Source of the DNA: Nitrospirales bacterium
Lineage (GTDB): Bacteria; Nitrospirota; Nitrospiria; Nitrospirales; UBA8639
NCBI GenBank assembly: GCA_963555755.3
Contig: OY820905.2
Span: forward strand, 1,824,001-1,888,000
Direction: 5' to 3'
Length of the DNA stretch: 64,000 bases
Shown: piece after piece, positions 538 through 62,850 of the stretch
How positions within the stretch are numbered: position 1 is the first letter of the stretch
Layout of the letters: each line of letters begins with the position of its first letter
The notes under the pieces: generated by a model
What the model saw: the letters and a program-made list of their open reading frames with translations, nothing else
The model's database searches: none
What the model was told of the DNA's origin: nothing
Translations under genes and position numbers: made by a program

Positions 538-799
538 GGGTCCGTCACGAAATAACCGGTACAATTGGGAGGCCCAGATTTGTGATCGGGGCAAGGCGCG
601 ACGAGGGAGCAGAGCGGGGCTCTGTGACCGAGGAGCAACGCCGCCCCGGGCCAAAGATGGGCCTCCCCGAGGGCCGGACGCTTTTGGGCTCCGCCCGCGT
701 CGCTCATCGCTTCCATACTCCCGGTATGCGCGCTCTTCGCTCCTTGGCTCGCTCCAAAATCGTCTCGGCCAATTGTCCCGGTTATTTCGTGACGGACCC
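538..799. mobile_element. MITE-like element, family A
   Basis: About 31-bp terminal inverted repeats GGGTCCGTCACGAAATAACCGG(T/G)ACAATTGG; flanks TCA/TAA; no coding capacity. Confidence 0.8.
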
Positions 800-888
800 T
801 AAGAGCTTGCGCGGACTTTTGTGATCCAACTGCCGTTTCTAGGTTGAACATTGAAACCACAAAATTTACTCATGATCGATATACACCA

Positions 889-1080
889 ATGAGCAATACT
901 CGCATCGCCAAACGCATGTGGTTATGGATTAATCGGGATGGCAGTCGATGGAAACTGGCAAAAACGGAGGAGGGGTTTTGGTTTTGCCCAGTGGGTTCTG
1001 GAGGCAAACGCCGAGGGTCTTGGGAAGCCGGATTCCCTCCGGGGTTAGACGATATTCCTCCTTGGCATAAGCAGTCATAG
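889..1080 (+). CDS. hypothetical small protein
   Basis: Trp-rich ORF (MSNTRIAKRMWLWINRDG...) directly followed by an RBS-led ORF; no family recognised. Confidence 0.35.
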   Translation: MSNTRIAKRMWLWINRDGSRWKLAKTEEGFWFCPVGSGGKRRGSWEAGFPPGLDDIPPWHKQS

Positions 1081-1096
1081 GAGTTATGGTTGGGTT

Positions 1097-1414
1097 ATGA
1101 CTCGGAACCTTCGGATCTCAAGTTATCGACTGGCTTTTTGGCATGCGCCTAAACGGGCACGTCACGAGGAAGAGGATGACTTGGATTGCATATTTTGCCA
1201 ATTCACTGAAGGAGTCGCCCGAATGCGTGATGTCGCGGGCTACCTTCACCACAGAGGTTTTACGATTACCGAATGTGATAACCGCTCTTTGACTATTGCC
1301 CTGGATAACTCGTCCGAGACCTCAGACATAATCCTTTCACACGACAAGTCGGCGTTGCTTCGAATCATTTCCGGGCAACGAGCATTCGCCTTCCCCTCTC
1401 CACGTTTTGAATAA
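1097..1414 (+). CDS. hypothetical protein
   Basis: 105-aa ORF with GGAG upstream and a CxxC motif (CIFC); no family recognised. Confidence 0.4.
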   Translation: MTRNLRISSYRLAFWHAPKRARHEEEDDLDCIFCQFTEGVARMRDVAGYLHHRGFTITECDNRSLTIALDNSSETSDIILSHDKSALLRIISGQRAFAFPSPRFE

Positions 1415-1418
1415 AGAC

Positions 1419-2183
1419 TCACTTCGGCATTTGAGAAGCATTCGTTTCTCGATCTTCAGGAGTCAACATCCGAACCTTGCCAAACTCCCCGTCATATCCT
1501 GGCGCAATCGTGACGTTGCCTTCTCGCATGGGTTGAATAGCAATCGCTAATAACGTTCCGCTGTGTTCTTCGATATCGACTATCGGCACATCCATGAGAA
1601 TAGAGAATTCATTGCCTAAGGGTTCGCGCAAGAATAACTTCCCCTGTGTGGGTGCTGAGACACCTGTCTGGCAAGGCGCGAGGACTGCGCATACTCCTGT
1701 ATGGAAAGGACGAGCAACGCCGCCAGACGGGATGGATCAACGTCCAAACAGGGGAAGTTATTCTTGCGCGAACCCTAAGTCCGCGAGTACACGATGATAG
1801 ACCCCCGTCACGCCTTTGGTGGTGACACCTGCACCTCTGATTTCAGAAAGGATTTCCACCAAGGGAACGAGGCTCCAGAAGGGTAACGCATTGGGGAAAC
1901 GATGGCCCGTCGGTTGATCCGCAAGTAACTCCGCTCGGCACGACTCAGGGATCTCACGATCTACAGGTGCGGCCAGTTCTGGCTTAAGGCGATAAAGGCC
2001 CTACTCTGCCGGTACAAGTTTTCTTGCAGCTCGGCAAACCAGGCAGGATGCGTGACGTCACCGGTCCCGACGACGGTAATCCCTTTGAGCTGCGCCCAGC
2101 GATAGAGACTTTCCGGAATCATGTGTTTGCTCCCCGCACGAGAGTAGCGGGAATGAAGTATGAAGATCGGCGATGAATGACAT
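1419..2183 (-). pseudogene. Endonuclease Q / TIGR00375 PHP-family pseudogene
   Basis: Fragments MSFIADLH / HSRYSRAGSKHM...KGITVVGTGDVTHPAWFAEL / ...LVPLVEIL...LG | NEFSILMDVP...PGYDGEFGKVRML. There is a frameshift near the start, a large internal deletion and a MITE inserted at 1620-1775. Confidence 0.8.
1620..1775. mobile_element. MITE-like element, family B (156 bp)
   Basis: TIR GGGTTCGCGCAAGAATAACTTCCCCTGT; perfect TAA target duplication (1617-1619 and 1776-1778). Removing it restores the reading ...ADLGNEF. Confidence 0.9.
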
Positions 2184-2275
2184 GATTGTTCCCTCAAAAA
2201 CGGAGCAAGCATAGCGGAGCCATCGATTGGGGCCAGAGATGGAAAAGAACTTACCGGTATGGGGCTGTATCTATA

Positions 2276-2416
2276 GGGCACCTCTAAAAACCGTCCTTTT
2301 CCGTGATGGCGGCGTCAGCCGCGTGCTCACATCCTCATGTATTCGCCCATACACTCCGGTTTTCCGCGCGCGGCTTCCTTGCCCTCACAAAAAATGCCTG
2401 GTTTGTAGAGTTGCCC
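2276..2416. mobile_element. MITE-like element, family C (141 bp)
   Basis: TIR GGGCACCTCTA(A/C)AAACC; TATA on both flanks; near-identical copies at 7120, 28508 and 32770. Confidence 0.9.
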
Positions 2417-2952
2417 TATAGTGAGAATAAGTGCCCTCGCTTTCGGTTTCTGCTAAAGCTCCCCTCTCATAAAACAGAAACGAAAGATCTCTACTCTGCC
2501 AAAACCAAAATAGATTGATGCTGAAATCTTGAAAGGCTCTTCTCCAAATCGTGTGGGTAACTTCTGGGGTTTTTCACTCCCCTCCTTTGTAAGGGGGTAG
2601 GGGAGGGATGATCAGGGTGAGGCCTCAAGAAAGCCTGGCCACTTTTCCCACGGTCAAAAAACCCACCAACCTCTTTTCCAGCGAGCCTTTCAGGACATGA
2701 CTCGCCCCAATTTACCCACTCACTTGGGAGAAGACCCTCTTGAAATTTTCAAATTAGGAGTAATGACCATCAAGACTTTTAAACAATACACCGAAATAAC
2801 TAAGAAATGACTGTATCCTGAAAATTTTTCAAGCCTGTTGATTCTAGACTCATTGACACATCATCTACCTCCTGTCTGGAACAGATATTGCATTAAACAT
2901 TAGAGAATCTATTTTATTGTATCTTTCCTATAGTATTTGAGGGGAGAAACAT

Positions 2953-4341: not shown

Positions 4342-4469
4342 GCCTCTCCTGCATCATCAGTGATCCTTTGCCGTTTACCCGGTGACAACACCCGCACTCT
4401 TTTTTGAACCCACACATAAACACGATTCTCCAAATTCACCCAATATAGTTGGCAGAGGCTTTCGCATTC

Positions 4470-5072: not shown

Positions 5073-5130
5073 TTGCCCCCCTGGGTTATGATCTGAACCC
5101 ATGCGTAGGATTACTCACACTATTCAGTTA

Positions 5131-5309
5131 GAACCTGAGAGAAAATACCTTGGACAATATCGCGCCAAGATTTGGGTCGGATTTGGACGGAACGATTGAG
5201 AAACACCCGAGGCATAGCACAGCTATGTGGAGGGTGTTTCGATTGAGGCCCGTTCAAAGATGACCCGAAGATTGGATGCGAGATGTCCAAGGTATTTTCT
5301 CTCAGGTTC
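5131..5309. mobile_element. MITE-like element, family D (179 bp)
   Basis: TIR GAACCTGAGAGAAAATACCTTGGACA; TTA duplication (5128-5130 and 5310-5312); copies at 29205 and 46594. Confidence 0.9.
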
Positions 5310-7119: not shown

Positions 7120-7260
7120 GGGCACCTCTAAAAACCGTCCTTTTCCGTGATGGCGGCGTCAGCCGCGTGCTCAAATCCTCATGTATTCGCCCATACACTC
7201 CGGTTTTCCGCGCGCGGCTTCCTTGCCCTCACAAAAAATGCCTGGTTTTTAGAGGTGCCC
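7120..7260. mobile_element. MITE-like element, family C
   Basis: Same sequence as the 2276 copy; 4-bp ACAT duplication; the right copy provides the AT of the downstream ATG. Confidence 0.9.
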
Positions 7261-7759: not shown

Positions 7760-8771
7760 TATGCCTTCCCATTTAACTAAGGTTGCTTCAGTTTATTGAA
7801 TCCCAAGGGTTTTGAGCTGCTGGTCAGGATTTTCAACAAACTCTGGAAGGTACTCATTGGAGTCTCACGGCGGTTATAGCGAAAGACAAACTCATCAAGA
7901 TAGTGTTGCAGGTATTTTGAATCCACTCCATGGTGAATCCCGTTCAGCCAGGTCTGCAGATTGCCGAACGCTCTATGGATGTATGGAGCGTGCTTCCCAG
8001 CACTTGCTGGGTCACCCTGGGTCCGTCTCAGGTGTTCGTATCCTGCCAAGGCTTTTGCCGAGTATCCCTTCCAACCATCGGACTTGATCTTACTGCCCTC
8101 AGCGACATGGCTATTGAGGAATGCTTTGATCTCGTTCTCTCCAGCGTCTTGAAGAATCGCTAATCGTAAACGCCCTGCTTTCTCTCGAAAGTGATCCCCT
8201 TGTGTGTACGTGACAATTTCTACGGCTCCGGCTATTAACGTCTTGGTTTTCGCTTTCGCGACGCCACGGCCCGTTTTGCCTTTTACCGGTCCACCGATAT
8301 GGGTTTCATCGGCTTCAACTGTTCCTGCGAGCCGTTCACGGTTCTGTCGTACCATTCCTCGTCGCAATCTGTGGAGCAAATACCAGGCGCTATCCACCTT
8401 CTTGATACTGAGTTGACGCTGCAATTGCACAGCACTGATGCCAGGTGTGTGCGTGGAGACGAAATAGGCAGCCCAAAACCAAAGCCGTAGCGGCAAGTGC
8501 GATCTATGCATCACTGTGCCGCTTAGCGGTGATGTCTGTCTATGACACGACGAACACTCAAACCGGAAATATTTTTTGAGCCACCAACCACCGCGATGAC
8601 CGCAAGCTGGACACATAAACCCGTCTGGCCACCGAATCGCCCGCAAGTACTCGAAGCACGCTTCTTCGGTGTGGAACCTAACAGAAAAATCCAAGATATC
8701 AGCAGCATACCCTGTGTCCATAGTCCAGCAGACTAGTCTAGGGACTAACCTTAGTCAAATGGGAAGGCATA
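7760..8771 (-). mobile_element. IS1595-family insertion sequence (1012 bp)
   Basis: TIR TATGCCTTCCCATTT(A/G)ACTAAGGTT; 8-bp TSD TGGGTTCA (7752-7759 and 8772-8779). Confidence 0.95.
7777..8721 (-). CDS. IS1595-family (ISXO2-like) transposase
   Basis: Zn ribbon CPAC..CSSC, VEADETHIGG, SDGW, YLDEFVFRYNRR. Confidence 0.95.
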   Translation of the reverse strand: MDTGYAADILDFSVRFHTEEACFEYLRAIRWPDGFMCPACGHRGGWWLKKYFRFECSSCHRQTSPLSGTVMHRSHLPLRLWFWAAYFVSTHTPGISAVQLQRQLSIKKVDSAWYLLHRLRRGMVRQNRERLAGTVEADETHIGGPVKGKTGRGVAKAKTKTLIAGAVEIVTYTQGDHFREKAGRLRLAILQDAGENEIKAFLNSHVAEGSKIKSDGWKGYSAKALAGYEHLRRTQGDPASAGKHAPYIHRAFGNLQTWLNGIHHGVDSKYLQHYLDEFVFRYNRRETPMSTFQSLLKILTSSSKPLGFNKLKQP

Positions 8772-10309: not shown

Positions 10310-10363
10310 TCCAGACGGGATGGATCGACGCCCAAACAGGGGAAGTTATTTTTGCGCGAGCCC
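10310..10363. mobile_element. Half copy (right end) of MITE family B
   Basis: ccagacgggatggatcgacgcccaaacaggggaagttatttttgcgcgagccc-taa matches the right arm of 1620-1775 and abuts a stop codon. Confidence 0.75.
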
Positions 10364-15137: not shown

Positions 15138-15138
15138 T

Positions 15139-15283
15139 GGGCCTATTCAAAAAGCATGCCCTCGCGAAGGGGGGGGGGGCCGCCCAGCAAGGCCGCAGGG
15201 GCTTTGGCGCCCGGAGCGTACACGGAGTACGTAAGGATGACAAAGGCCCGAGCACGCAGTTGGCGGACTTTTTCAACTGGCTT
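15139..15283. mobile_element. MITE-like element, family E
   Basis: Imperfect TIR ..CTATTCAAAAAG / CTTTTTCAACTGG; core ccagcaaggccgcag..gagcgtac..gtacg shared with 42277, 58637 and 62729. Confidence 0.75.
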
Positions 15284-15314
15284 ATAATCAACTTCCAACC
15301 CGAGTGGGAATGAT

Positions 15315-20829: not shown

Positions 20830-20989
20830 GAGCCTGTCCGAGATTAGCGATCGTCATGAGAATATGCTGGTTTGAGTCAGATATTTCGATCGCTTGAGGC
20901 GAATAGTGGGACTATTCAACGAAAAGGGTCGGAAACTCTGGCCAAATCCAACGCATCCGCAGTAGATCAGTCTAATCTTGGACCGGCTC
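20830..20989. mobile_element. MITE-like element, family F
   Basis: TIR GAGCCTGTCCGAGATTAG / CTAATCTTGGACCGGCTC; central gaatagt-ggg-actattc hairpin; abuts the tkt stop codon. Confidence 0.75.
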
Positions 20990-23059
20990 CTAAGCCCGAA
21001 CGGCAAGTTCGAGTTGTTGTTTTACAGCAGCCATCACGTGATCAACGGTAAATCCAAAATGTTTGGTCAGATCCTTCAGCGGCGCTGACGATCCAAAGGT
21101 GTGCATGCCAATGCTCGTCCCCGTCAGTCCCACATACCGGCTCCACCCAAAAGTTGTCGCCTGTTCGACCGAGACCCGAGCCGTCACGCCGGGAGGAATG
21201 ACCGAGTCCCGATAGTCTTGACTCTGCTGTTCAAACAATTCCCACGACGGCATACTCACCACACGCGCTTTTATCCCATCCACTTTCAATTGTTCGTAGG
21301 CATCCACGCACAGCGGCACTTCACTTCCGGTAGCCAGCAATAACACTTCAGGCTTGCCATCATCGGCATCAGCCAACACGTAAGCACCCTGAGCGACACC
21401 AAGGGCCGATGCATACAGTGTGCGGTCCAACGTCGGAAGGGCTTGTCGAGTTAAGGCCAGTACCACGGGTTGATGTTGGAGTTGCATGATCACTCGCCAG
21501 GCTTCGACCACTTCATTCGCATCACCGGGTCGAAGGGTGACCAACCCCGGAATGGCTCGCAGAGATGCCAATTGCTCAATGGGTTGATGCGTCGGACCAT
21601 CCTCTCCCACGCCAATGGAATCATGCGTGAACACGTAAATCACCGGGATTTCCATCATAGCTGCGAGACGAATAGACGGCCGGCCGTAGTCACTAAAGAT
21701 CAAAAACCCGGAACCATACGCCCGAACTTTCGACAACGACATACCGCTCATAATCGCGCCCATGGCATGTTCCCGAACACCGAAGTGCAGATTTCGTCCA
21801 CCTGGAGTAGTCGCTTCACAGTCGCCTGCACCATCAAAAGTCAAACGGGTTTTGGTTGAGGGCGCCAGATCCGCGGCCCCGCCCATCAGCCAGGGGACTT
21901 CCTTCGCAATCGCATTGAGGACTTTCCCTGACGATTCCCGTGTGGCTAGACCCTTTTTGTCGGCAGGAAATTCCGTCAACCCTCGAGCCCATCCTTCCGG
22001 GAGTTGTCGATGCTGCATTTTGTACAATTGATCCGCGAGGTCTGGATACTGTGTTGTGTACTCCTGAACCTTCGCCATCCACAACTCTCGATTCGCTTTG
22101 CCTCGCTGTCCCATGCCAGCTTGAAAATGCTGAATGACTTCTTCCGGAACCAAGAACTTGGCGTCTTCGGGCCACCCATAATTTTTCTTGGTCAGGCGAA
22201 TTTCTTCTTCACCCAAAGGCTCACCGTGCGCACCATGAGTGTCCTGTTTATTCGGTGAGCCAAACGCAATATGACTATCAACAATAATCAGAGTGGGCCT
22301 GGTGTTTTCCTCCTGAAACGCACGGAAAGCACCGGACAGTTTTTCTAAATTATTGGCATCGTCAACGTAGGCCACCTTCCATCCATACGCTCGAAAGCGG
22401 GCCCCTACATCTTCACTAAACGCCAACGCCGTCTTTCCCTCAATCGTGATTTTATTGTTGTCATAGATCCAACACAGATTTGACAATTTTAAGTGGGCAG
22501 CCAGTGAGGCCGCTTCACTCGACACGCCCTCCATCATACAGCCATCCCCACACAGGGAATACACATCATAGTTGATGATGTCGAATCCCGGGCGATTAAA
22601 ATACTCGGCCATCCAGCGCTGAGCCATCGCCATCCCAACACTATTCCCCAGGCCCTGCCCAAGCGGCCCCGTCGTGGTTTCGACCCCCGAGATCCAATGG
22701 TATTCAGGATGCCCAGGGCATTTGCTCTCCAATTGCCGAAACCGTTTTATTTCGTCAAGTGGAACTGCCAGATCAATCGTGGCCCCGTATTCATTATTCA
22801 CGGCCTTGACTTGGGATAGATGCAACATGGCATAGAGGAGCATCGAGGCATGGCCGATGGAAAGGACAAATCGATCGCGGTTGGGCCAAATAGGATCATC
22901 AGGATCAAATTGAAGAAATTGATTCCAGAGGCAATAGGTCACAGGCGCCATGGCCATAGGCGTTCCCGGATGACCGGATTTGGCGGCTTGCACGGCATCC
23001 ATGGCCAACGTCCGAATGGTATTGATACTTAATTGTTCGGTAGAAATTTGATCAGCCAC
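20990..23059 (-). CDS. tkt: Transketolase
   Basis: SGHPG, RDRFVLSIGH, TTGPLGQG, GDGCMMEG, THDSIGVGEDGPTHQP. Confidence 0.97.
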   Translation of the reverse strand: MADQISTEQLSINTIRTLAMDAVQAAKSGHPGTPMAMAPVTYCLWNQFLQFDPDDPIWPNRDRFVLSIGHASMLLYAMLHLSQVKAVNNEYGATIDLAVPLDEIKRFRQLESKCPGHPEYHWISGVETTTGPLGQGLGNSVGMAMAQRWMAEYFNRPGFDIINYDVYSLCGDGCMMEGVSSEAASLAAHLKLSNLCWIYDNNKITIEGKTALAFSEDVGARFRAYGWKVAYVDDANNLEKLSGAFRAFQEENTRPTLIIVDSHIAFGSPNKQDTHGAHGEPLGEEEIRLTKKNYGWPEDAKFLVPEEVIQHFQAGMGQRGKANRELWMAKVQEYTTQYPDLADQLYKMQHRQLPEGWARGLTEFPADKKGLATRESSGKVLNAIAKEVPWLMGGAADLAPSTKTRLTFDGAGDCEATTPGGRNLHFGVREHAMGAIMSGMSLSKVRAYGSGFLIFSDYGRPSIRLAAMMEIPVIYVFTHDSIGVGEDGPTHQPIEQLASLRAIPGLVTLRPGDANEVVEAWRVIMQLQHQPVVLALTRQALPTLDRTLYASALGVAQGAYVLADADDGKPEVLLLATGSEVPLCVDAYEQLKVDGIKARVVSMPSWELFEQQSQDYRDSVIPPGVTARVSVEQATTFGWSRYVGLTGTSIGMHTFGSSAPLKDLTKHFGFTVDHVMAAVKQQLELAVRA

Positions 23060-27025: not shown

Positions 27026-27106
27026 AATGGGGTCAGACTCGATTAAATACGATCATCTCGACTGACTAGGGGCACCGCTCGCCATTTAATCGAGTCTGAC
27101 CCCATT
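27026..27106. repeat. REPIN-like hairpin (GGGGTCAGA REP doublet)
   Basis: Perfect 23-bp inverted repeat AATGGGGTCAGACTCGATTAAAT with a 35-nt spacer. Confidence 0.8.
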
Positions 27107-28507: not shown

Positions 28508-28648
28508 GGGCACCTCTCACAACCAGTCATTTTTTGTGAGGGCAAGGAAGCCGCGCGCGGAAAACCGGCGTGTATGGGCGAATACATGAGGAGTTGAGCA
28601 CGCGGCTGACGCCGCCCTCACGGAAAAGGACGGTTTGTAGAGGTGCCC
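28508..28648. mobile_element. MITE-like element, family C (inverted)
   Basis: Reverse complement of the 2276/7120 element, slightly diverged; no TSD retained. Confidence 0.85.
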
Positions 28649-29204: not shown

Positions 29205-29382
29205 GGCCCTGGGAGAAATTAACTTGAACATTTCGCGCCAAGATTTGTGGCAGATTTGGACGGAACGATTGAGAAACACCCGAGGCATAGCACAGCTATG
29301 TTGAGGGTGTTTCGATTGAGGCCTGTTCAAAGGTGGCTCGAAGATTGGATGCGAGATGTTCAAGTTAGTTTCTCCCAGGGCC
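29205..29382. mobile_element. MITE-like element, family D
   Basis: TIR GGCCCTGGGAGAAA(T/C)TAACTTGAACAT; interior matches 5131-5309; flanks TTA/TAA. Confidence 0.88.
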
Positions 29383-31254: not shown

Positions 31255-31450
31255 GGACTCTGGGTTCTCCTGGTTTGAGAGGTAGACTGTTGTCGATAAC
31301 TTGAAAATCCCCCTAACCCCCTTTTCCAAAGGGGGGATCTGAATAATCACCTCCAGGCAGAGCGCCAGGGAATAACAAGATTCAACAGACCTAAAAAAAA
31401 GGCGGGAAAGCTTTTGGCCTTCCCGCCCTACCAAAACATTTTCCACTGAT

Positions 31451-32689
31451 TTATTTTTTGGCCTTCAGCTTCACGTTTTCCTTAAATCGAGTAATTTGCA
31501 CAGGCTTGAAGGCCCGATCTTTTCTCCCTAAAGAAGCGCGTTGTTCGACTTCTTTGATAAATGCTTCGGGCCCATGAATAGGCGCATAGGTCATGGTCAC
31601 GATGACATCCATGGATGGCGCGTCTTTGGGCGTGGGGAAGGTAAAGATTTCAACCCGTTTTTCCTCAGGCTTCAGAACGTTTTCCTCCAATACCTTAACG
31701 GCTTCAAAATCAAAGATCGTGGCTTTTCCGTTTTTGTCACCAAACACGCGTTCGTAGTATCGCTGTTCATTGAACGTTTTTCGCAAATTTTTACCGAGGA
31801 TCGTCAAGTCGATTACAACCCGAGACCATCCAGGATGCGGCAAGGGCAGGTTGTGGGGCACCAAACTTTGAATGGTGACCGTGACTTCCGATTCCATCCC
31901 TTTGACTTCGGTCACGACGTCCAGCTTCACCGCATCGGCTCGAACTTTTCCGAATCGCCCAGGGAAACTATGGTTGGCGATTTTTCGATTCCGTTCTCCG
32001 TTCGCGGATTCACCAAACTCCTCCGGCATGTGACACGACTGGCAATTTTTTCCACTCTTTTGCGTCTTGGATTCCTGCCAGGGTCCCAGCAAATCAGGAA
32101 GTTTTTCAAAGCCAGGCAGATTTTCATGACAGGTCACACAAAACTGGGATTGGCTATACAGCGATAGAGGAACGGATTGATGCGCTAAATTTTCTTCTGG
32201 CTTTTTATAGCTCCCGAAGACAGTTCGTTCTAATTGGTATGTAGGATGCGGGGGATGCTGGGTCGGATCTACCGATTTAATCAAATGGCACTGAGAACAC
32301 CCGACCCCATCCAACTGCGGATCACCTGATTCGACTTCTTTGATATACACTCCCGTGTGGTCAGGGTATTCTATGGTACTCGGGGCATGGCATCGGAAAC
32401 ACATGGCACCTTCTTTGTCTTGTGTGGTTGCCCGATAGTGTTCCAACGACACGCGAAAAGGGGAACTCAAAATCGATCGGGATTGTGCCGATGCTTCCCA
32501 TTCCTCAAACACGCGCAAGTGGCACCGTTTGCATTTCTGTGAGTGGGGATACGCCTTTTCCAGAGGTTTAGCTGGAGCCTTCCCCGCCGCCAACGTTTCG
32601 GAGGCAGGAAGGTCGATGGTGACCACTAACAAGGCCGTGACCAAAAACAAGCCTGTCACCCAACAGAGTGCATGGAGAATTTTTCGCAT
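31451..32689 (-). CDS. Pentaheme c-type cytochrome
   Basis: Signal peptide and five CxxCH motifs: CKRCH, CFRCH, CSQCH, CVTCH, CQSCH. Confidence 0.92.
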   Translation of the reverse strand: MRKILHALCWVTGLFLVTALLVVTIDLPASETLAAGKAPAKPLEKAYPHSQKCKRCHLRVFEEWEASAQSRSILSSPFRVSLEHYRATTQDKEGAMCFRCHAPSTIEYPDHTGVYIKEVESGDPQLDGVGCSQCHLIKSVDPTQHPPHPTYQLERTVFGSYKKPEENLAHQSVPLSLYSQSQFCVTCHENLPGFEKLPDLLGPWQESKTQKSGKNCQSCHMPEEFGESANGERNRKIANHSFPGRFGKVRADAVKLDVVTEVKGMESEVTVTIQSLVPHNLPLPHPGWSRVVIDLTILGKNLRKTFNEQRYYERVFGDKNGKATIFDFEAVKVLEENVLKPEEKRVEIFTFPTPKDAPSMDVIVTMTYAPIHGPEAFIKEVEQRASLGRKDRAFKPVQITRFKENVKLKAKK

Positions 32690-32746: not shown

Positions 32747-33048
32747 GGGTTCGCGCAAGAATAACTTCAGGGCACCTCTAAAAACCGTCCTTTTCCGTGA
32801 TGGCGGCGTCAGCCGCGTGCTCAACTCCTCATGTATTCGCCCATACACTCCGGTTTTCCGCGCGCGGCTTCCTTGCCCTCACAAAAAATGCCTGGTTTTT
32901 AGAGGTGCCCTTCCTCTGTTTGGGCGTCGATCCATCCCGTCTGGCGGCGTTGCTCGTCCTTTCCATACGAGGAGTATGCGCAGTCCTCGCGCCTTGCCAG
33001 ACAGGCGTCTCAGCACCCCAACAGAGGAAGTTATTCTTGCGCGAACCC
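32747..33048. mobile_element. Family B MITE carrying a nested family C MITE (32770-32910)
   Basis: B-type TIR at both ends; the C element interrupts the left TIR with flanks TTCA/TTCC. Confidence 0.92.
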
Positions 33049-42208: not shown

Positions 42209-42422
42209 GGGACTGTTGAATATTTCACTCAAATGGCAAATAAATGCCCAAGAGGAGACAGCCATCAGTAGCTGAAGGGAATGTTCAAAAAAGCATGCCC
42301 TGAGTCCTTCCGAAGGGTCTATCCAGCAAGGCCGCAGCCCTTTTGACGCGCGGAGCGTACATGGAGTACGTGAGCACGGCAAAAGGGCGAGAACGCCGCT
42401 GGCGGCTTTTTTCAACATTCCC
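42209..42422. mobile_element. MITE-like element, family E (inner copy 42277-42422 plus an extra outer TIR)
   Basis: GGGAATGTTCAAAAAAG / CTTTTTTCAACATTCCC; extra GGGACTGTTGAA end at 42209. Confidence 0.8.
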
Positions 42423-46593: not shown

Positions 46594-46771
46594 GGACCTG
46601 AGAGAAAATACCTTGGGCATATCGCGCCAAGATTTGGGTCGGATTTGGACGGAACGATTGAGAAACACCCGAGGCATAGCACAGCTATGGTGTAGGTGTG
46701 TCGATTGAGGCCCGTTCAAAGATGGCCCGAAGATTGGATGCGAGATGTCCAAGTTATTTTCTCTCAGGTCC
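46594..46771. mobile_element. MITE-like element, family D
   Basis: TIR GGACCTGAGAGAAAATA; perfect TTA duplication. Confidence 0.9.
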
Positions 46772-48077: not shown

Positions 48078-48082
48078 GGCTT

Positions 48083-48266
48083 AGAATTGTAACTACTCAG
48101 GTGGATAGGCCGAAGGCTAAAGGCTGAAGGCTTTTATAGGAAGCAATCACGCGTGCAAAACCTCGGACATTATAAGTATTAGCCTCCAGTCTTCAGCCTT
48201 TATCCTTCAGTCTTTAGCCTTTAGCCTTCAGCCTTCGGCCTATCCACCTCAGTAGTTTCGAATTCT
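48083..48266. repeat. Palindromic element built of inverted heptamer arrays (CTGAAGG / CCTTCAG)
   Basis: Left arm aactactcaggtggataggccgaaggctaaaggctgaagg; right arm about 9 heptamers followed by cctatccacctcagtagtt; lies between two convergent stop codons. Confidence 0.8.
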
Positions 48267-55024: not shown

Positions 55025-56493
55025 CAATACTGTTCACTTAGATATCTTCGGTGGTTTGATGGATGGTGTCCAGTCAATTTGCGCAACGGGCGGTCTCGGA
55101 CGTTTGTACGGTGCGTATGGAGAGTTTCGGCGTTTCACCATCCTCGGCTTGATTTTTCCACGACTGGATTCACACAACAGTTTCGCCGTCGCCTCAAACA
55201 GCAGCCGATACCATGTTTTTTGGCGCTCAGGGGGGAAGGGCCCCAGATTGGGGCAGGGTTCGACGCACTAACTGCACCGTGGCCGTAAAAGATACCGTGC
55301 GGTCAGGGATGTCTGCCTGGGTGGCCCCTTGATACATCAACCAGCGCACGGCGTAGTGGGCCATCACCCATCCGTAGAACTCTTGACGCACCAACTCTGG
55401 CGTTTTACTGCGCAGGACGCGACGACGTTGCCTCAGGTGCGTCTTCAGCTCATCAAACACCAATTCCACCTCCCAGCGCTCGTGATACAGTTGAGCCAGG
55501 TCCTGGGCGGGTGCGCCTTGGTCATCCAGCAGCGTGGTGACGAGACGGTACAGCGGTTCGCTATTGGGCCCCTGCGGTAAGACATACTCAATCACCCTGA
55601 TGGCGATCCCATCAATTCGCTTTCTTCTGGCGCGTTCACTGGGATACAGATGGCTCAGGTACGAGCCATCGTCCAACAGCTTGTCAACTGGAAGGATCAA
55701 GCTCTTCGGCATGCGCCAGAGTAGTTGCGCTCCGGTCTGAAGGCCGGCCTGCCAATGGGCGTACCCGACAAAGCCGCGATCGGCCATGCAGAGCATGTCG
55801 GGCGTGAGGCGACGCACCAAGGGCGCGGCCACCTCCCATTCGGCCTGCTTATAGGCCCCTAGTTCGGCATCCAAAATGGCGTGACTGGCACATTCCGTCA
55901 AAATGGCGCACTGGGCTTGGGGGTAGCCGGCCTGCCCGGTTCGGCTCCCTGGGTACCCAAAGACTTGCACATTGGCTTCCTCATCCGGGACCTCAAAGTT
56001 GGAGCCATCTATCGCGACGAGTCGGTAGCCTGCAAAAAAGGCGTGGGCATGCTCTGGACGAGCCAACGGGCGCAAGCAGCGCTGTCCAATGGCTTTCAGC
56101 GCCTTCCACGTCAGCCGTGAGCGGGCTTTGCTGATGGCTGATTTGACAACGGTCACGGGAGCAACGGGTTTGTGGTCTTTCCATGCCAGCCCTTGGGCCA
56201 CAGCGGCAAACACCGCTTCGTACGCGGCCTCGCTGTATAAGCTCAACGCCATGGTGTAGTACACCACGGCAGAAGCGGGAAAGGTGCGGACACGTTCACT
56301 GTTACAATGATGTGCGTCAAGTTCTTCGTTGATGATGGCCACCGGAAAGGCACGAGCCAGTAATCCCGTGCTCAAATAATCCGCCAATCGAGCCCCCGCC
56401 CCCAAGCCGACTTTCTTTCTTGCCATGTTGCCTCCTCCCAGATTACGTGTGGAGGCGAAGTATAACAGATTTTCATCTAAGTGAACAGTATTG
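55025..56493 (-). mobile_element. IS4-family insertion sequence
   Basis: TIR CAATACTGTTCACTTAGAT; 10-bp TSD GGTCAAGACT (55015-55024 and 56494-56503). Confidence 0.95.
55227..56426 (-). CDS. IS4-family transposase
   Basis: VAIDGS, ADRGF, YHERWEVELVFDELK (YREK motif), LRSKTPELVRQE. Confidence 0.95.
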   Translation of the reverse strand: MARKKVGLGAGARLADYLSTGLLARAFPVAIINEELDAHHCNSERVRTFPASAVVYYTMALSLYSEAAYEAVFAAVAQGLAWKDHKPVAPVTVVKSAISKARSRLTWKALKAIGQRCLRPLARPEHAHAFFAGYRLVAIDGSNFEVPDEEANVQVFGYPGSRTGQAGYPQAQCAILTECASHAILDAELGAYKQAEWEVAAPLVRRLTPDMLCMADRGFVGYAHWQAGLQTGAQLLWRMPKSLILPVDKLLDDGSYLSHLYPSERARRKRIDGIAIRVIEYVLPQGPNSEPLYRLVTTLLDDQGAPAQDLAQLYHERWEVELVFDELKTHLRQRRRVLRSKTPELVRQEFYGWVMAHYAVRWLMYQGATQADIPDRTVSFTATVQLVRRTLPQSGALPP

Positions 56494-56705: not shown

Positions 56706-57603
56706 TATGCCTTCCCATTTGACTAAGGTTAGTCCCTAGACTAGTCTGCTGGACTATGGACACAGGGTATGCTGCTGATATCTTGGATTTTTCTGTTAGG
56801 TTCCACACCGAAGAAGCGTGCTTCGAGTACTTGCGGGCGATTCGGTGGCCAGACGGGTTTATGTGTCCAGCTTGCGGTCATCGCGGTGGTTGGTGGCTCA
56901 AAAAATATTTCCGGTTTGAGTGTTCGTCGTGTCATAGACAGACATCACCGCTAAGCGGCACAGTGATGCATAGATCGCACTTGCCGCTACGGCTTTGGTT
57001 TTGGGCTGCCTATTTCGTCTCCACGCACACACCTGGCATCAGTGCTGTGCAATTGCAGCGTCAACTCAGTATCAAGAAGGTGGATAGCGCCTGGTATTTG
57101 CTCCACAGATTGCGACGAGGAATGATACGACAGAACCGTGAACGGCTCGCAGGAACAGTTGAAGCCGATGAAACCCATATCGGTGGACCGGTAAAAGGCA
57201 AAACGGGCCGTGGCGTCGCGAAAGCGAAAACCAAGACGTTAATAGCCGGAGCCGTAGAAATTGTCACGTACACACAAGGGATCACTTTCGAGAGAAAGCA
57301 GGGCGTTTACGGCAGCGATTCTTCCACGCTGGAGAGAACGAGATCAAAGCATTCCTCAATAGCCATGTCGCTGAGGGCTCAGATAACCGGCAAAAGCCTT
57401 GCCCCCAAGCCGAACACCTTTCTTGCCAGGGTGCCTCCTCCCAAGTGATTAGAGCGTTCGGCAATCTGCAGACCTGGCTGAACGGGATTCACCAAGATGA
57501 GTTTGTCTTTCGCTACGCACCGCCGTGAGACTCCAATGAGTGACCAGCAGCTCAAAACCCTTGGGATTCAATAAACTGAAGCAACCTTAGTTAAAGGGAA
57601 GGC
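56706..57603 (+). pseudogene. IS1595 copy, degenerate in its 3' half
   Basis: Essentially identical to 7760-8771 up to about 57280, then many small deletions and frameshifts. Confidence 0.85.
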
Positions 57604-57618
57604 TTGATTTAATATCTT

Positions 57619-58606
57619 ATGCCTTCCCAGTCCCTAGACTAGATGGGGACACAGGGTATGCTGCTGATATCTTGGATTTTTCTGTTAGGTTCCACACCGA
57701 AGAAGCGTGCTTCGAGTACTTGCGGGCGATTCGGTGGCCAGACGGGTTTATGTGTCCAGCTTGCGGTCATCGCGGTGGTTGGTGGCTCAAAAAATATTTC
57801 CGGTTTGAGTGTTCGTCGTGTCATAGACAGACATCACCGCTAAGCGGCACAGTGATGCATAGATCGCACTTGCCGCTACGGCTTTGGTTTTGGGCTGCCT
57901 ATTTCGTCTCCACGCACACACCTGGCATCAGTGCTGTGCAATTGCAGCGTCAACTCAGTATCAAGAAGGTGGATAGCGCCTGGTATTTGCTCCACAGATT
58001 GCGACGAGGAATGATACGACAGAACCGTGAACGGCTCGCAGGAACAGTTGAAGCCGATGAAACCCATATCGGTGGACCGGTAAAAGGCAAAACGGGCCGT
58101 GGCGTCGCGAAAGCGAAAACCAAGACGTTAATAGCCGGAGCCGTAGAAATTGTCACGTACACACAAGGGGATCACTTTCGAGAGAAAGCAGGGCGTTTAC
58201 GATTAGCGATTCTTCAAGACGCTGGAGAGAACGAGATCAAAGCATTCCTCAATAGCCATGTCGCTGAGGGCAGTAAGATCAAGTCCGATGGTTGGAAGGG
58301 ATACTCGGCAAAAGCCTTGGCAGGATACGAACACCTGAGACGGACCCAGGGTGACCCAGCAAGTGCTGGGAAGCACGCTCCACACATCCATAGAGCGTTC
58401 GGCAATCTGCAGACCTGGCTGAACGGGATTCACCATGGAGTGGATTCAAAATACCTGCAACACTATCTTGATGAGTTTGTCTTTCGCTATAACCGCCGTG
58501 AGACTCCAATGAGTACCTTCCAGAGTTTGTTGAAAATCCTGACCAGCAGCTCAAAACCCTTGGGATTCAATAAACTGAAGCAACCTTAGTTAAATGGGAA
58601 GGCATA
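57619..58606 (+). mobile_element. IS1595 copy with a damaged 5' end; transposase ORF 57672-58589
   Basis: Near-identical transposase; right TIR followed by TAATATCT, which also precedes 56706 (8-bp TSD). Confidence 0.9.
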
Positions 58607-58636
58607 TAATATCTTTTAAGCTGGTTGGTTGCTTCT

Positions 58637-58818
58637 CCTGTTGAAAAAGTCCGCCAGCGGCGTTCTCGGTCATTTGCCGTGCTCACGTACTGCCGTACGC
58701 TCCGCGCGCCAAATGCCCTGCGGCCTTGCTGGACCTGGCTTCGCCGAGCCCTCCTTCGCCGAAGTGGCTACGAAGGCTGAAAGCGGCTTCGCGCAGGCGA
58801 GCGGCCTTTTTGAACAGG
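58637..58818. mobile_element. MITE-like element, family E (inverted) with an internal palindromic cassette
   Basis: CCTGTTGAAAAAG ... CTTTTTGAACAGG; core shared with other E copies. Confidence 0.8.
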
Positions 58819-58896
58819 CCCTCTGCTTGTGATGAATCAGGGAATTGGTCAAATGGAATTTGGCGCTCAGACATTTTTTAGTTACTCAACGGTACC

Positions 58897-59860
58897 TTTT
58901 GGTAACACGTATCCCAAGTGGAAAGTATAAGTTATTAATTTTCCAATGAATTTTTTCAGGGAGACCTAACCCTTGTCAAGGATTGGGCTTCATTGGACAG
59001 AGCAATCAGGCAGGGTGTTGAAAAATTAAAAAACCCTCAGAAGCCGTTCATGGCTTCATGAGGAACGCAAATCACCAGTTGCAATACAGAATGCGCGGCG
59101 GCCCCCAGCAGGGACAAAAACTCGAACGGCTGTGTCGCGACATCACGCGCCCGGCCTTGGGCCACAAACGCCTGTGCCGTACACCAGCGGCGAGGCAACT
59201 CAAAACCCCGTATCGCGATGGCACCACCCACCTCGTCATGACCCCGCTGGAATTCCTGCAACGCCTCGCGGCCCTCGTCCCACGTCCCCGGCTCCATCTC
59301 ATTCGCTTCCACGTGCTGGCACCCAACGCAGCCCTGCGCTCCCAGATCGTGCCCGGCGAGTCCAACCAGGCACCGAACACTCCCGATGAGCACAGTGACG
59401 CACCCTATGCCTCCACGCAGGCTCGCATGAGCTGAGCGCAATTACCCAAACGGGTCTTCGGCCATCGACATGGCCGCCTGTCGGCAGTGTGGCGGCCCCT
59501 TGACCTTCATCGCGGCCATTGAAGATCCTGCCGTGATCGTCAAGATTCTCGCCCACCTGGGTGTGCCCACGCGTGCTCCACCTCGGTCACCGGCTCGCAT
59601 CGACGAATGCTTTCAGACAGCCTAAGCCCACCCTGGATTCCGGTTCAGTGCCCGAGGCGACACTCCCCCTTTGCCCAATTCCCCCACTCACACCCACAAT
59701 GGAGCGACAGGCTGACCCGAGCCTAGGAAAATGGACCGGTCAGACCCTACTCGTAGGATACACTCCCGCATTTCAGACGGTAACGTCTGCGAATTGACCC
59801 CGCAACGGGGTCTTTGATACTTTCCGGTTTAGGCAAAAAGGCCTTTTAAAATTCCTATTC
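58897..59860 (+). mobile_element. Direct repeat copy 2: IS91/ISCR-like remnant (frameshifted) with an oriIS-like end
   Basis: Same leader, transposase fragment and terminus as 52903-53876. Confidence 0.8.
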
Positions 59861-60270
59861 CCTGAGTGATATCGTGGGAACTGTCAATCGCAGCCTGAGA
59901 GGGTGGGCGAATTATTTCCACTATCGTAACTCAAGTCTGGCGATGAACAAGGTCAGAAATCATGCGGAAGCCCGGCTGCGAACTCACTTGATGAAACGCC
60001 ATAAAGTGAAGGCTCGACGAAGTGGTCTCGGCCGTTTCCCGCATGCTGATCTCTACGGGCGTTATGGGCTGTACAAAGTTCCTGTGGGACCGGGCTGGCG
60101 CTCGGCGCATGCCTTGGCTTTAAGAACATCGGAAAGCCGTGTGCGGGAAAACTGCATGCAGGGTTTGATGAGGGGGCGCTGGTCATTTCTGACTGCTCTA
60201 GCCCGGATTAGGCGCGTGCGTCGAAACGTTCGAGAGCAGACCCAGGATGAGCACCAGTGCTCTACTCTAC
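59861..60270 (+). mobile_element. Group II intron 3' remnant (maturase X-domain end, domains V and VI)
   Basis: VNRSLRGWANYFHY; DV AAGCCGTGTGCGGGAAAACTGCATGCAGGGTTT; DVI GAGGGGGCGCTGG...CCAGTGCTCTACTCTAC ending in AC. Confidence 0.9.
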
Positions 60271-60345
60271 CCCATTTCATCCTGACCCCCATCCCTTATC
60301 TCTTAATATGGTTTACCCTCTTTTTTTTCCTCTTCGAATTTCGTT

Positions 60346-61014
60346 TTAATTGTCAGAAAGTTGCTCTAGCTTAGTTAACCAATTGCTAAAGTGATCACAT
60401 TCTTCCCTAATTCGCTCTACACCAATTCGTCCAGCAATTAGGGAACCATGCAATGGTTTCTGGTAGTTCGGGTAAGCATTAATAATTCTTTGGTGGGGGG
60501 CAGTAGACTTATGGTCATTAATTTCTTCAGGGGATTGGAACTGTTCCCGGATATTCTCAAAAGTATGACGAAGTCTTGAACCTCCAGGTAGGGCATCTTC
60601 CATCGCTTGAGGGGATGAAAAAAGAAGTCCCTCGAATTCGTGTAGGGTTAGGAACGGTATGAATTTCGAGTCATTAATATCCTGTTTGATAGCTTCCTCA
60701 ACATAACAAACATGGTCATAACAGTTACTTCCCTGCGGAGCACTTCGTCCAGGGAAGGTAGAGGGGAGGCCATAATAGTCAAGCATTGTTGTTACAGCGA
60801 CGGCGCTGGTGTCTTGCAAAAGATTCCATATTTCCTTTTTCGCTTTGTGGTATTTTGGCACACCGCCCTTAAAGACGGGCTGTGAAAACACGAATTTGGT
60901 TGTTGCTACGATGGGGTGGCAATATAGATTGCGGATTTCCAGATAGGGAACCAGGAGAGTTTTTACAAATCTTTCTTCCGTTTGACCTTCAACATAAATA
61001 AAGACTTTTCTCAC
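60346..61014 (-). CDS. DUF4276-family protein (TOPRIM-like VEGQTE motif)
   Basis: IYVEGQTEERFV, TTMLDYYGLP, LHEFEGLLFS, SPEEIND, C.HF..WL. Confidence 0.88.
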   Translation of the reverse strand: MRKVFIYVEGQTEERFVKTLLVPYLEIRNLYCHPIVATTKFVFSQPVFKGGVPKYHKAKKEIWNLLQDTSAVAVTTMLDYYGLPSTFPGRSAPQGSNCYDHVCYVEEAIKQDINDSKFIPFLTLHEFEGLLFSSPQAMEDALPGGSRLRHTFENIREQFQSPEEINDHKSTAPHQRIINAYPNYQKPLHGSLIAGRIGVERIREECDHFSNWLTKLEQLSDN

Positions 61015-61016
61015 GA

Positions 61017-62105
61017 TTACGGTCTACCGCCCAGAAGATTTTTCTCCCAAAGATCCCCAAGACCATAATCTTCTATCCAGCTTTCCATTTCTTTACTTTC
61101 TAGATGCCTGAATGTAGATTGTCCCCTACCCCGATCCACAACGAGAATGTCTTCTGGTTGAAGTTGGTTAACAAGAGGGACTGATTGCGTAGAAACAATG
61201 ACTTGCGTTTTTTCTGAGGCACTTTTCAATAATGATGCGAGGACAGTAATTGCATAGGGATGTAAGCCTAGTTCTGGTTCATCTATCAGCACAGTTGATG
61301 GTGGTGTTGGTTGTAGAAGTAAGGTGGCTAGACACATGAAACGAAGTGTACCATCAGAGAGGTGGGAGGCCCTAAAAGGAAAATCGGATCCCTTTTCACG
61401 CCATTCCAGCCTAATATTATCTTTAGCAATAGGATCGGGTCTTAGTACGAAATCGTCGAAAAACGGAGCAACCTGCCGAATGGTGTCACGAATTGCCTCG
61501 TAATAGGAACCAGTTCGACTTTCTCTTAATAAATATAAATAGGCAGCTAAGTTTCTGGCATCTGAACGAAGATAAAGATTATCATTTATTTCCCCAATCT
61601 TTTTGACTTTTGCACTATCACTCGTGTCGTGAAAGTGGTAAAGCCTCCAAGTTTTGAGTGAATCCATAACATAGCCGGGCACTTTTTTCGGCAATTTCCT
61701 GGCAGCGTCAGGCAGTTGGCTCTCTTTGTGACCCGAGCCTAGATACTCTCGATAAACTGATGGTTTATAATCACCCCAAAAAAGACACTCCTCTCGACTG
61801 AAGAAAAGCGACCCATCTGCCGTTGGTGCCCAAACACAGTAATATCCATTCGCACCAAACCGTAGTTCGACTTCGATTTTGTCTGTGGTTTTTTCACCAA
61901 AGTGCAAAAATGTTTCAGCACCACCACCATGCGTAACCGCATTTTGAAAATTCCCAGCTCCCATCTCATTTAATAGTTTAAATATACTAATAAAATTGCT
62001 TTTTCCTGCACCATTAGATCCAATCATGACATTTAAAGCACGCAGATCTAGGTCAAGATCACGTATAGATTTAAATCCTTTAAGATTTATCTTCTCCAGT
62101 TTCAT
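61017..62105 (-). CDS. AAA/ABC-type ATPase (AAA_21/AbiEii-like)
   Basis: GFKSI, GSNGAGKSN, LSDGTLR, LIDEPELGLHP, VSTQS, LGDLWEKNLLGGRP. Confidence 0.92.
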   Translation of the reverse strand: MKLEKINLKGFKSIRDLDLDLRALNVMIGSNGAGKSNFISIFKLLNEMGAGNFQNAVTHGGGAETFLHFGEKTTDKIEVELRFGANGYYCVWAPTADGSLFFSREECLFWGDYKPSVYREYLGSGHKESQLPDAARKLPKKVPGYVMDSLKTWRLYHFHDTSDSAKVKKIGEINDNLYLRSDARNLAAYLYLLRESRTGSYYEAIRDTIRQVAPFFDDFVLRPDPIAKDNIRLEWREKGSDFPFRASHLSDGTLRFMCLATLLLQPTPPSTVLIDEPELGLHPYAITVLASLLKSASEKTQVIVSTQSVPLVNQLQPEDILVVDRGRGQSTFRHLESKEMESWIEDYGLGDLWEKNLLGGRP

Positions 62106-62327
62106 ATTTCTGTCGTGAACCTTTCTACGCCTTCACAAATGGTACAAAATAAAGGCTGTTATTCTCTACTTGAAATAATTTACGACGAATTAAAAATCTT
62201 GGACCGTAAGGAAATGGCGACAGGCTACTTTTTGAAATGAACGGTGTCAACAGTCTTTTACGATAATACGCGCGAACCTGGGTCGGGGTGAGTTCTCACA
62301 TTCCTACATTTTTGCTAAACTCACACT

Positions 62328-62628
62328 ATGGCCAGACCGTTACGACTGGAATTTGCAGGGGCGTTGTATCATATCACCTCACGAGGAGACAGGCGCGACG
62401 CCATTTATCGAGCCGCTGACGATCGAGAAGCCTGGTTGGAAGTCCTTGGCAACGTCTGTGCCCGGTTTAACTGGGTCGTGCATGCGTATTGCCAGATGAC
62501 CAACCATTATCATGTGCTTGTGGAAACCATAGACGGCAACCTCTCACGCGGCATGCGGCAATTGAATGGTCGATATACCCAGCGGTTTAATCGCCGCCAT
62601 GGCCTGGTTGGGCATGTGCTTCAAGAAT
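62328..62628 (+). pseudogene. RAYT/IS200-like Y1 transposase, 3'-truncated
   Basis: MARPLR..F.GALYHITSRG, AYCQMTNHYHVL (HUH), FNRRH...GHVLQ, then broken by a REP copy. Similar REPs lie at 62286-62311 and 62630-62654. Confidence 0.88.
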
Positions 62629-62728
62629 CCGGGGTCAGTTCTCACATTCCTACAGTAGGTGTTGAAAAAGTCAAAAACTATCAGAAGCAGTTCCTGCTCC
62701 AGGAAGAAATCAAAACACCAGTTGCAAT

Positions 62729-62850
62729 GCAGGGTGTTCAAAAGGTCCATCCAGCAAGGCCGCAGGGCTTTTGGCGCGCGGAGCGTACAGCAGTACGTGG
62801 GCACGACAAAAGTCCGAGAACGCCGCTGGCGGGCATTTTCAACATCCTGC
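62729..62850. mobile_element. MITE-like element, family E (shortest, cassette-free copy)
   Basis: GCAGGGTGTTCAAAA / TTTTCAACATCCTGC; abuts the secF stop codon. Confidence 0.82.

Follow-up and report, generated by a model that had tools for sequence, protein, structure and literature searches.

A folded core common to MITE families with different ends in a Nitrospirales genome

The window analysed here, 64,000 nt of a Nitrospirales bacterium (contig OY820905.2, positions 1,824,001 to 1,888,000), holds many non-coding MITEs whose ends differ from family to family and whose centres look alike, which raises the question of what such a centre does for an element that its ends could move. The matter is not peculiar to this genome: why the centre of the rod-folding MITE ERIC is conserved, and how elements of this sort reach a high copy number without a transposase of their own, has been open since 1990. 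An initial annotation of the window had proposed that the functional unit may be a structured passenger and not the TIRs.

Elements of the window and recognition of their core

Cores were located with a covariance model trained on foreign sequence alone and then run on the window. A pattern was used to choose the training set, so the words that do not vary in it were fixed by that choice, and kin are not independent of one another. The model matched C, E, B, A and two of the three D copies, and nothing else in the window below E = 0.3, bearing out for these families the similar central hairpin that had been annotated across full-length copies. Neither F nor the D copy at 46594 gave a match at E<=5; F is tied to the core by motif register, its sole link being an outer loop of shortened form. 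In a MAFFT alignment with eight long foreign elements, F was misaligned.

The likeness between families is visible in structure and motifs, not in plain BLAST, which links A and B alone (74% over 50 nt). Interior HMMs matched A2, the second core of A, to B (E = 2e-5) and D to Selenomonas elements bearing the full core (E = 3.7e-6). A descriptor made of the outer words and the hairpin found 540 matches in the chromosome versus 1 in 2 Mb of Markov sequence, and an inner descriptor 485 versus 1 in 1.5 Mb. Rfam, to which the annotation had pointed as a possible source of a known family, returned nothing above the gathering threshold in the window and only tRNAs on 20 foreign loci.

All 15 positions cited as MITEs were confirmed by their TIRs and family-specific target duplications. 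MITE A (538 to 799, no strand assigned) has TNA-type ends, sits inside another repeat, G (about 413 to 846), and carries two cores in opposite orientation: A1 (585 to 650, + strand, E = 7.5e-4), of the short class with an inner length of 37, and A2 (688 to 752, − strand, E = 0.35), whose outer loop has an A·G variant. The hairpin sequences quoted by the annotation are correct, but for A it had chosen the weaker of these two. MITE B at 1620 to 1775 (+ strand, TAA duplication) has a short-class core at 1665 to 1729 (E = 2.7e-5); the supposed half copy of B is indeed a B right end standing alone (10311 to 10363, + strand), but there is no core in it. In the B copy at 32747 to 33048 (− strand; core 32938 to 33003, E = 2.1e-5), a C element is inserted near the end of B (32770 to 32910, − strand; core 32797 to 32882, E = 2.9e-10). 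Further C elements lie at 2276 to 2416 (− strand, 4-bp duplication; long-class core 2303 to 2388, E = 5.9e-10), 7120 to 7260 (− strand, ACAT duplication; core 7147 to 7232, E = 9.8e-11) and 28508 to 28648 (+ strand; core 28536 to 28621, E = 1.6e-8).

The D copies are all on the + strand. That at 5131 to 5309 has an inner module at 5183 to 5257 (E = 1.2e-3) with other sequence in place of the outer loop, that at 29205 to 29382 has its inner module at 29256 to 29330 (E = 4.6e-4), and that at 46594 to 46771, 95% identical to the first, has a mutated inner motif. MITE E is found between the 6-phosphogluconate dehydrogenase and glucose-6-phosphate dehydrogenase genes (15139 to 15283, + strand; core 15180 to 15266, E = 4.8e-8), at 58637 to 58822 with a small extra palindrome inside (− strand; core 58654 to 58732, approximate ends, E = 1.2e-6), and, in a Y1 reading frame (IS200/RAYT-like, 62328 to 62924), within the 3' portion (62729 to 62851, + strand; core 62748 to 62832, E = 1.5e-6). 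A fourth E copy lies at 42277 to 42422 (+ strand; core 42320 to 42405, E = 2.9e-9); elsewhere in the genome, copies of its subtype are targeted by an IS110 element. MITE F (20830 to 20990, + strand), between the transketolase and transaldolase-PGI genes, has a core of the shortest class at 20895 to 20924.

Fold and covariation of the core

One strand of the core folds into a rod, at the base of which the TIRs pair; the outer loop of this rod is fixed, its G·A pairs stand in tandem and its tip has the form RTA/TAY. The rod is strand-asymmetric, and in five of five families the complement folds less well than the core strand. In the alignment 87.9% of cells are paired, versus 63.6% when shuffled and 30-42% when slid; 19 of 26 pairs vary on both sides, and at pattern positions left free 85, 82 and 77 of 85 foreign cores pair. 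The cross-family covariation of the stems, on which the annotated idea of a shared core had been staked, is thus strong. It extends to a non-canonical pair, columns 13/83, which is C·A in 33/46 and A·G in 12/46; C·A prevails in E (221/283), B (130/177), A1 (39/46) and F (72/96), and A·G in C (103/124). A G·U pair is near-fixed (42/46).

Inner length is stepped: 15-16 in F, 37 in A1 and B, 57 in C and E, and, among foreign cores, 39-41 in 5/85 and 52-62 in 77/85. These three classes are about one helical turn apart: counted from the outer loop in steps of roughly 10 bp, the tip stands at zero, one or two. Within the inner motif the word GGAG(G) is fixed. No sub-motif is universal: the outer loop is missing from D, and B, A2 and F do without the canonical inner motif. 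The core may also resemble the bulges of E. coli REP, kink-turns and the L1-binding site. A mimic of SRP RNA helix 8 was rejected: this genome's SRP RNA, compared by eye, differs in the third pair and has a short GNRA-capped stem absent from the core, and the SRP family gave no match on cores.

Such a likeness could be passive, the product of common descent and a general selection for stable hairpins without specific recognition. MITE transcripts in general form long stems, according to PMC10969869, and nesting by itself can shift interiors between ends. We consider this explanation very improbable indeed, as unpaired bases are better conserved than paired ones (in 168 distinct E copies loop bases are 97-100% fixed and stem bases vary with compensation), a non-canonical pair covaries, and the stepped lengths recur across phyla with dissimilar stems.

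Ends, transposases and spread across genomes

Genome-wide, the MITE families are non-coding elements of 123-262 bp with 46-283 cores each (847 in total), and paired TIRs were counted for 46 A, 154 B, 124 C, 54 D, 150 E and 83 F elements. A 3-bp TNA target duplication is present in 79/143 paired copies of B and 44/67 of D, and weakly in A (11/44, site CTNAG); a 4-bp duplication is present in 95/119 paired copies of C, in 26/82 of F, where CTAG is most frequent, and weakly in E, whose ends are variable (32/181). Elements with IS66 ends, here called H, have an 8-bp duplication. These counts uphold the annotated difference in duplication length, 3 bp for B and D and 4 bp for C. The TIRs, described as unrelated, do differ by family, but the TNA target type is common to A, B and D. 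Since the duplications are family-specific, it is the ends that do the transposing, and the view that puts the passenger in place of the TIRs as the functional unit finds no support in that form.

F shares its ends and its CTAG site with a DUF772/DDE transposase element (C1:1335521, 2921633), and H is matched by an IS66 of the same genome (L005); the core is absent from both of these autonomous elements and was found in no transposase-coding element at all. No autonomous IS with A, B, C or D ends was found among the 23 DUF772/DDE_Tnp_1 loci inspected, and E ends bear only a loose likeness to one. Long elements with MITE ends, considered as autonomous partners, turned out to be MITEs into which something else had inserted: E holds two types of IS110, B an IS630, F an IS66 and an IS5-type element, and C a cargo gene. 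Core-free MITEs also spread, G to about 43 copies, and a regex search found 19 of 25 IS66-ended elements to be without the core. Six elements combine the 14-bp IS66 TIR with the core, and five of them show 7-8/8 duplication matches.

The core is present in at least eight phyla, and the taxa that bear it include E. coli, Nitrospirota, Desulfobacterota, Acidobacteriota, Planctomycetota and Bacillota; across phyla the stems share little sequence. It is carried on the ends of unrelated IS types (TNA, CTAG/4-bp and 8-bp IS66). C-type ends enclose other cores at two foreign loci (L091, L204), and a C/H-like core lies within other ends at a third (L201). Ends and cores have been reassorted, one end type occurring with different cores and near-identical cores in different ends; together with the covariation, this substantiates the annotated module common to different transposon ends. 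The foreign collection comprised 121 loci, and 12 were dropped as chance matches in coding regions (11 actinobacterial, 1 Halomonas). ORF clustering found no recurrent neighbour gene family beside the 121 loci, and no transposase was found beside foreign cores, as 43 query proteins of this genome gave one unrelated match against L060-L204 and four viral loci. On viral contigs a loose pattern hit mostly chance coding matches, with about 4 of 43 loci resembling real cores, and plasmid searches using E and using the Selenomonas element gave no matches.

Tandem core arrays without obvious TIRs in three foreign genomes (L187-L189), and the attraction of IS110 and small palindromic inserts to E elements, would suit a REP-like unit amplified by a putative single-strand (HUH-type) enzyme and wrapped in IS ends only secondarily. 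This appears decidedly improbable to us: copies in this genome have DDE-type duplications, no gene family recurs at the foreign loci, and only 2 of 17 Y1 genes have an inner-motif match within 1.5 kb, a single one in each case and never a flanking pair. On the same count, REP/REPIN with RAYT was rejected as the known system behind these elements.

Between co-directional genes 249 cores are sense and 267 antisense, behind stop codons 157 and 169, and relative to replication the count is 396 versus 451, so overall the core does not keep to one orientation with respect to adjacent genes or replication. This points to selection on the copying of the element, not on the neighbouring mRNA. With crude gene calls, E behind stop codons is sense in 38 and antisense in 89 cases, and F in 17 and 5. 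In the RNA runs, for which assembled contigs alone were used, repeats pile up as in DNA runs and the RNA showed no excision joint; neither observation counts for or against a role of the core in RNA. The orientation counts bear on another possible role, one already proposed for ERIC: transcripts that read through an insertion would carry the core as an RNA signal for processing or stability, and the host would thereby tolerate the insertion or profit from it. The non-canonical pairs are RNA-like, copies lie within operon-like runs (E in gnd-zwf, F in tkt-tal), and ERIC, which matches our model, is reported in PMC2229807 to affect mRNA stability, destabilising upstream transcripts via RNase E in an orientation-dependent manner. 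A host-selected signal on one strand would be expected to be consistently oriented; with counts near parity and opposed family biases, we regard this role as unlikely.

We propose instead, with a probability of roughly 45%, that MITEs with family-specific ends share a folded single-strand core and that this core, as a putative cis-acting structure recognised by a protein, makes the element that carries it more likely to be copied. The ends move the element, the core has no transposase-coding carrier and no consistent orientation, and for these reasons the core is likely to be a recognition structure that acts in cis and benefits the element. Every step of the mechanism is one that we infer. 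The MITEs would be mobilised in trans, likely by several kinds of DDE transposase, and the fold would arise once the core strand is exposed; free RNA is a less probable setting for this than DNA that has become single-stranded or extruded while being replicated or transcribed. A conserved host protein might then recognise the loops, which would lie along the same side of the helix, and, once bound, hold the paired ends together or help them capture a transposase of any family. An element may acquire new ends when it nests in another, as C has in B, A in G and E in F, and one of the two end pairs is then lost. The near-fixed G·U, the tandem G·A and the C·A/A·G swap count against a DNA-based proposal, being at least as RNA-like as DNA-like. 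Also against the proposal stand the spread of core-free MITEs, the effect on mRNA reported for ERIC, the orientation biases of E and F and the want of a universal sub-motif.

Alu hijacks LINE proteins. By analogy, a transcript not yet released from the DNA copy it is read from might use the core to recruit a ribosome or a newly made transposase to that copy, which would explain the action in cis, the RNA-like pairs, the unbiased new insertions and the indifference to transposase family, and could give a role to the fixed GGAG(G) word. That word is buried within the fold and the resemblance of the outer loop to SRP RNA helix 8 is superficial, and we hold this account to be improbable.

Kinship with ERIC, RSA and other repeats

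In E. coli K-12, the ERIC copy between aceF and lpd, which carries the ERIC primer sites as given in PMC3867629, matched the covariance model at E = 1.5e-4 in 1.2 kb. Four of 12 further ERIC copies matched at E<0.01 (best 30.6 bits), the other eight gave E>0.01 or nothing, and a strict scan of the whole E. coli genome listed no ERIC. Matching copies share with the window cores the outer loop and the GGAG..TAC/GTA..GTGA tip, and in both the long stem-loop has a conserved central inverted repeat, alike in structure and not identical in sequence. In length and ends they differ: ERIC (also IRU or RU-1), non-coding like the window elements, has 127 bp, TA ends and a 7-bp TIR according to Table 1 of PMC2229807, whereas the window families have 123-262 bp, long TIRs and TNA, 4-bp or CTAG duplications. 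A second K-12 repeat of 150 bp in six copies is probably RSA, judging by size and copy number (150/151 bp, 6 copies in Table 1 of PMC5172473). Its interior closely resembles the C and E cores (E interior HMM, E = 1.4e-4), but its ends are weak or decayed, its outer loop is altered and, genome-wide, only 3/6 copies matched, at E = 0.025-0.37. Both E. coli repeats match the model more weakly than the window families do; the module is therefore not wholly new, being carried by ERIC and, probably, RSA.

More tentatively, the core could be a universal, transposase-independent mobility enhancer, read by a conserved host protein and capturable by any IS end pair, which thereby becomes a high-copy MITE; ERIC and RSA would be its enterobacterial members, and a large share of bacterial MITEs would form one superfamily defined by the interior. 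A covarying, helically phased module that reaches from E. coli to Nitrospirota, Desulfobacterota, Acidobacteriota, Planctomycetota and Bacillota indicates the exact bases to mutate, and makes the conservation of the ERIC centre a question testable in E. coli K-12. It also turns round the usual view that MITE ends alone matter.

BRE of Betaproteobacteria and BOX of streptococci both have a CAAGGC word. BRE was rejected as kin, as its sequences (supplement of PMC3110155) lack the tip and the inner motif and differ beyond this one word. For BOX, 27 metagenome loci score E>=0.17 and have no inner module, a viral match was due to chance, and a sample of 401 genomes centred on one from Clostridia held none; BOX-primer loci do have a word pair like that of the outer loop. 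Type II MITEs, defined in PMC10969869 as sharing only TIRs with an IS, are fitted by F and H through the ends of the DUF772/DDE element and IS66; the interior here is conserved across families and the ends are swapped, the reverse of what is usual. In the literature we found no description of the module. A family from Geobacter whose tip is the same appeared in a 2009 list, as a possible regulatory RNA of a few deltaproteobacteria that was noted in Desulfotalea as well; its entry there does not describe it as a MITE core and gives no structure past the palindrome. The central palindrome stated for it is the reverse complement of the tip at our Geobacter locus (L072).

A structured core across families

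Every element assigned to families A to F by the initial annotation was found in the window, and paired-TIR copies recur throughout the 4.62-Mb genome that carries it (50.9% GC, 99% complete), numbering 46 for A, 154 for B, 124 for C, 54 for D, 150 for E and 83 for F, with 847 cores in total by whole-genome BLAST. A core descriptor gave 540 matches versus 1 per 2 Mb of Markov sequence, and a second one 485 versus 1 per 1.5 Mb. Since plain BLAST and interior HMMs strongly linked only A with B, the question is whether the likeness is structural.

A degenerate pattern run on GTDB contigs returned at least 121 loci, the matches listed coming from Desulfobacterota, Acidobacteriota, Planctomycetota, Bacillota, Nitrospirota, Omnitrophota, Bradymonadales and a Kerfeldbacteria bin; 12 chance hits in coding regions were removed from the foreign set afterwards. 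Because the pattern itself dictates certain words, their invariance was not taken as evidence. Among the matches listed, 85 of 117 distinct ones also contained the downstream outer word, for which the pattern had not asked, and three positions at which either base was allowed were paired in 85, 82 and 77 of those 85. The 96 complete cores were reduced to 64 non-redundant ones. From these, an alignment and a model were built on 46 long-class cores, all of them from other genomes. Pairing in this alignment reached 87.9%, compared with 63.6% after shuffling and 30-42% after sliding, and both sides had changed in 19 of 26 pairs. This covariation supports the suggestion of one structured module conserved across different ends.

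Applied to the window, the foreign-trained model matched four C, four E, two B and two D copies and core A1 (585-650) at E<=0.0012, and the opposite-oriented core A2 (688-752) at E 0.35; no other match in the window fell below E 0.69. F and D46594 escaped the model. The core is real, conserved and selected, and passive descent is the least probable of the explanations weighed.

One strand of the core forms an outer stem that runs on into the TIR pairing. An outer loop follows (YAAGGMR facing YRACGCMG), then a variable stem and a set of tandem G·A pairs with a bulged G; the tip is an RTA/TAY stem with a free loop. Outer-loop columns 13/83 of the foreign alignment covary, being C·A in 33 and A·G in 12 of 46 cores, a swap presumably compatible with an isosteric sheared pair. 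The C·A variant occurs in E, B, A1 and F, the A·G variant in C. In F the outer loop is closed by T-A, not C-G, and the tip is attached directly; by a loose pattern, 12 of 94 foreign elements have one more outer word pair in common with F. D retains just the inner module; Selenomonas elements with the tip of D and a full outer loop form the bridge to it. Inner lengths are 15-16, 37 and 57 in this genome and 39-41 or 52-62 abroad, and steps of some 20 nt are about one helical turn of a rod. Loop bases are 97-100% fixed among E copies while stems vary with compensation, and in all five families compared the fold of the core strand is more stable than that of its complement.

Known relatives and range

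The K-12 aceF-lpd repeat, which carries published ERIC primer sites (PMC3867629), has 13 BLAST copies in K-12. The aceF-lpd copy matched the core model at E 1.5e-4, and of the remaining 12, four matched at E<0.01, three weakly and five not at all. A strict whole-genome scan of K-12 returned, in place of ERIC, three copies of a second repeat (E 0.025-0.37; six copies of about 150 bp), with an interior much like those of C and E; by size and copy number, as tabulated for RSA in PMC5172473, it is probably RSA. A G. metallireducens family listed in 2009 has the same tip (PMC2700814). The window families differ from ERIC in length and ends, whereas ERIC's core is common to both. Streptococcal BOX-type loci (L218-L244) have a word pair in outer-loop register (A·G variant) without the inner module, a likeness that is not significant.

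Within this phylum the model matched 50 of 121 genomes, and it also matched 23 of 101 sampled around a Halomonas genome, counts of kin rather than independent trials, and single Clostridia, Planctomycetota and Acidobacteriota genomes; that Halomonas genome and a Micromonospora genome gave no match. Head-to-tail core arrays with no obvious TIRs occur in one Clostridia genome and two of this phylum (L187, L188, L189).

No description of a cross-phylum MITE core was found in the accessible literature searched, including PMC10969869, PMC3184786, PMC2229807, PMC2996986 and PMC3110155; subscription literature may hold partial ones. The elements are a variant of known MITEs in which the core is of ERIC type and the ends are exchangeable; this analysis contributes a test of six families against a model trained on foreign sequence, a member with IS66 ends, the helical length steps, the connection to RSA and the tests of orientation.

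Exchange of ends and cores

Ends and cores are reassorted between elements. The 14-bp TIR and the 8-bp duplication typical of the genome's own IS66 recur in a seventh family, H, whose core is intermediate between C and B/A1. F ends match a DUF772/DDE transposase element, by our reading IS1182-type, that has no core. C-type ends enclose other cores at two foreign loci (L091, L204), and a third (L201) has a C/H-like core inside other ends. Nesting is frequent (C in B, A in G, E in F) and would offer a route for such exchange. Among small IS66-ended elements, 19 of 25 have no core when searched by regular expression. Long elements with MITE ends were considered as autonomous partners and rejected, being other IS inserted into MITEs, and no transposase was found beside the foreign core loci examined.

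Family G, for which clustering gave about 43 copies, harbours A at about 413-846 of the window and elsewhere hosts B and inserts into D; it matched neither the core model nor the interiors. An element at 48091-48257 combines ends of the IS66 type with internal short tandem repeats and has no core. Elsewhere in the genome, an IS66-ended element lies within an F MITE, a DruA-like gene (PF14236) preceding its IS66 transposase (L005, G000:C1:2361898-2364479), and a 1.35-kb insert splits a C element at the hairpin, leaving both ends intact (L004, G000:C1:2350503-2351998). The 234-aa frame of this insert had no Pfam match; the locus is possibly a cargo-carrying MITE. E elements are landing pads for IS110, as REPs are for IS621: two IS110 types enter them at a CT dinucleotide (L001, G000:C1:1893133-1894492, and L002), and about ten 1.36-kb copies retain E ends. 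Small palindromes are often inserted in E at fixed places next to the outer loop (for example at window 58733-58800).

Possible action of the core and other window features

Target duplications are family-specific genome-wide, TNA for A, B and D and 4 bp for C; that of E is 4 bp with a weak signal and that of F is CTAG. It is therefore the ends that do the moving, which speaks against the proposal that the passenger core, rather than the TIRs, is the functional unit. Core orientation had no consistent overall direction relative to neighbouring genes; behind stop codons, by crude gene calls, E leaned antisense and F sense. Relative to replication it showed no clear bias (396 versus 451, p 0.06; A1, 15 versus 31). 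The overall inconsistency argues against action on neighbouring mRNA for the host: an mRNA-processing signal serving the host would predict consistent orientation, and is the less probable reading, though next in rank. The best fit is selection for copying of the element itself, for which the core would need to act in cis. On this reasoning we prefer, over all four alternatives and at slightly under even odds (about 0.45), a model in which one strand of the element, more probably as DNA than as RNA, would fold and, in helical phase, bind a host protein. A tethered nascent RNA is improbable and a captured REP-like unit slightly more so.

E62729 lies within the 3' part of a forward-strand Y1 (IS200/RAYT-like) reading frame (62328-62924), one of 17 Y1 matches in the genome, most with GGGGTCA-type sub-terminal repeats. 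A perfect 23-bp inverted repeat of the RAYT-associated GGGGTCAG type occupies 27026-27106. An L20-leader-like match with a terminator (31388-31557, reverse strand) is weak and under the cut-off, and a group II intron domain V/VI-like fragment (60132-60270, forward strand) scores 39.3 bits, slightly below the Rfam cut-off. IS1595-family transposases (three copies or pieces) and one transposase of IS4 are found at 7777-8721, 56756-58589 and 55227-56426.
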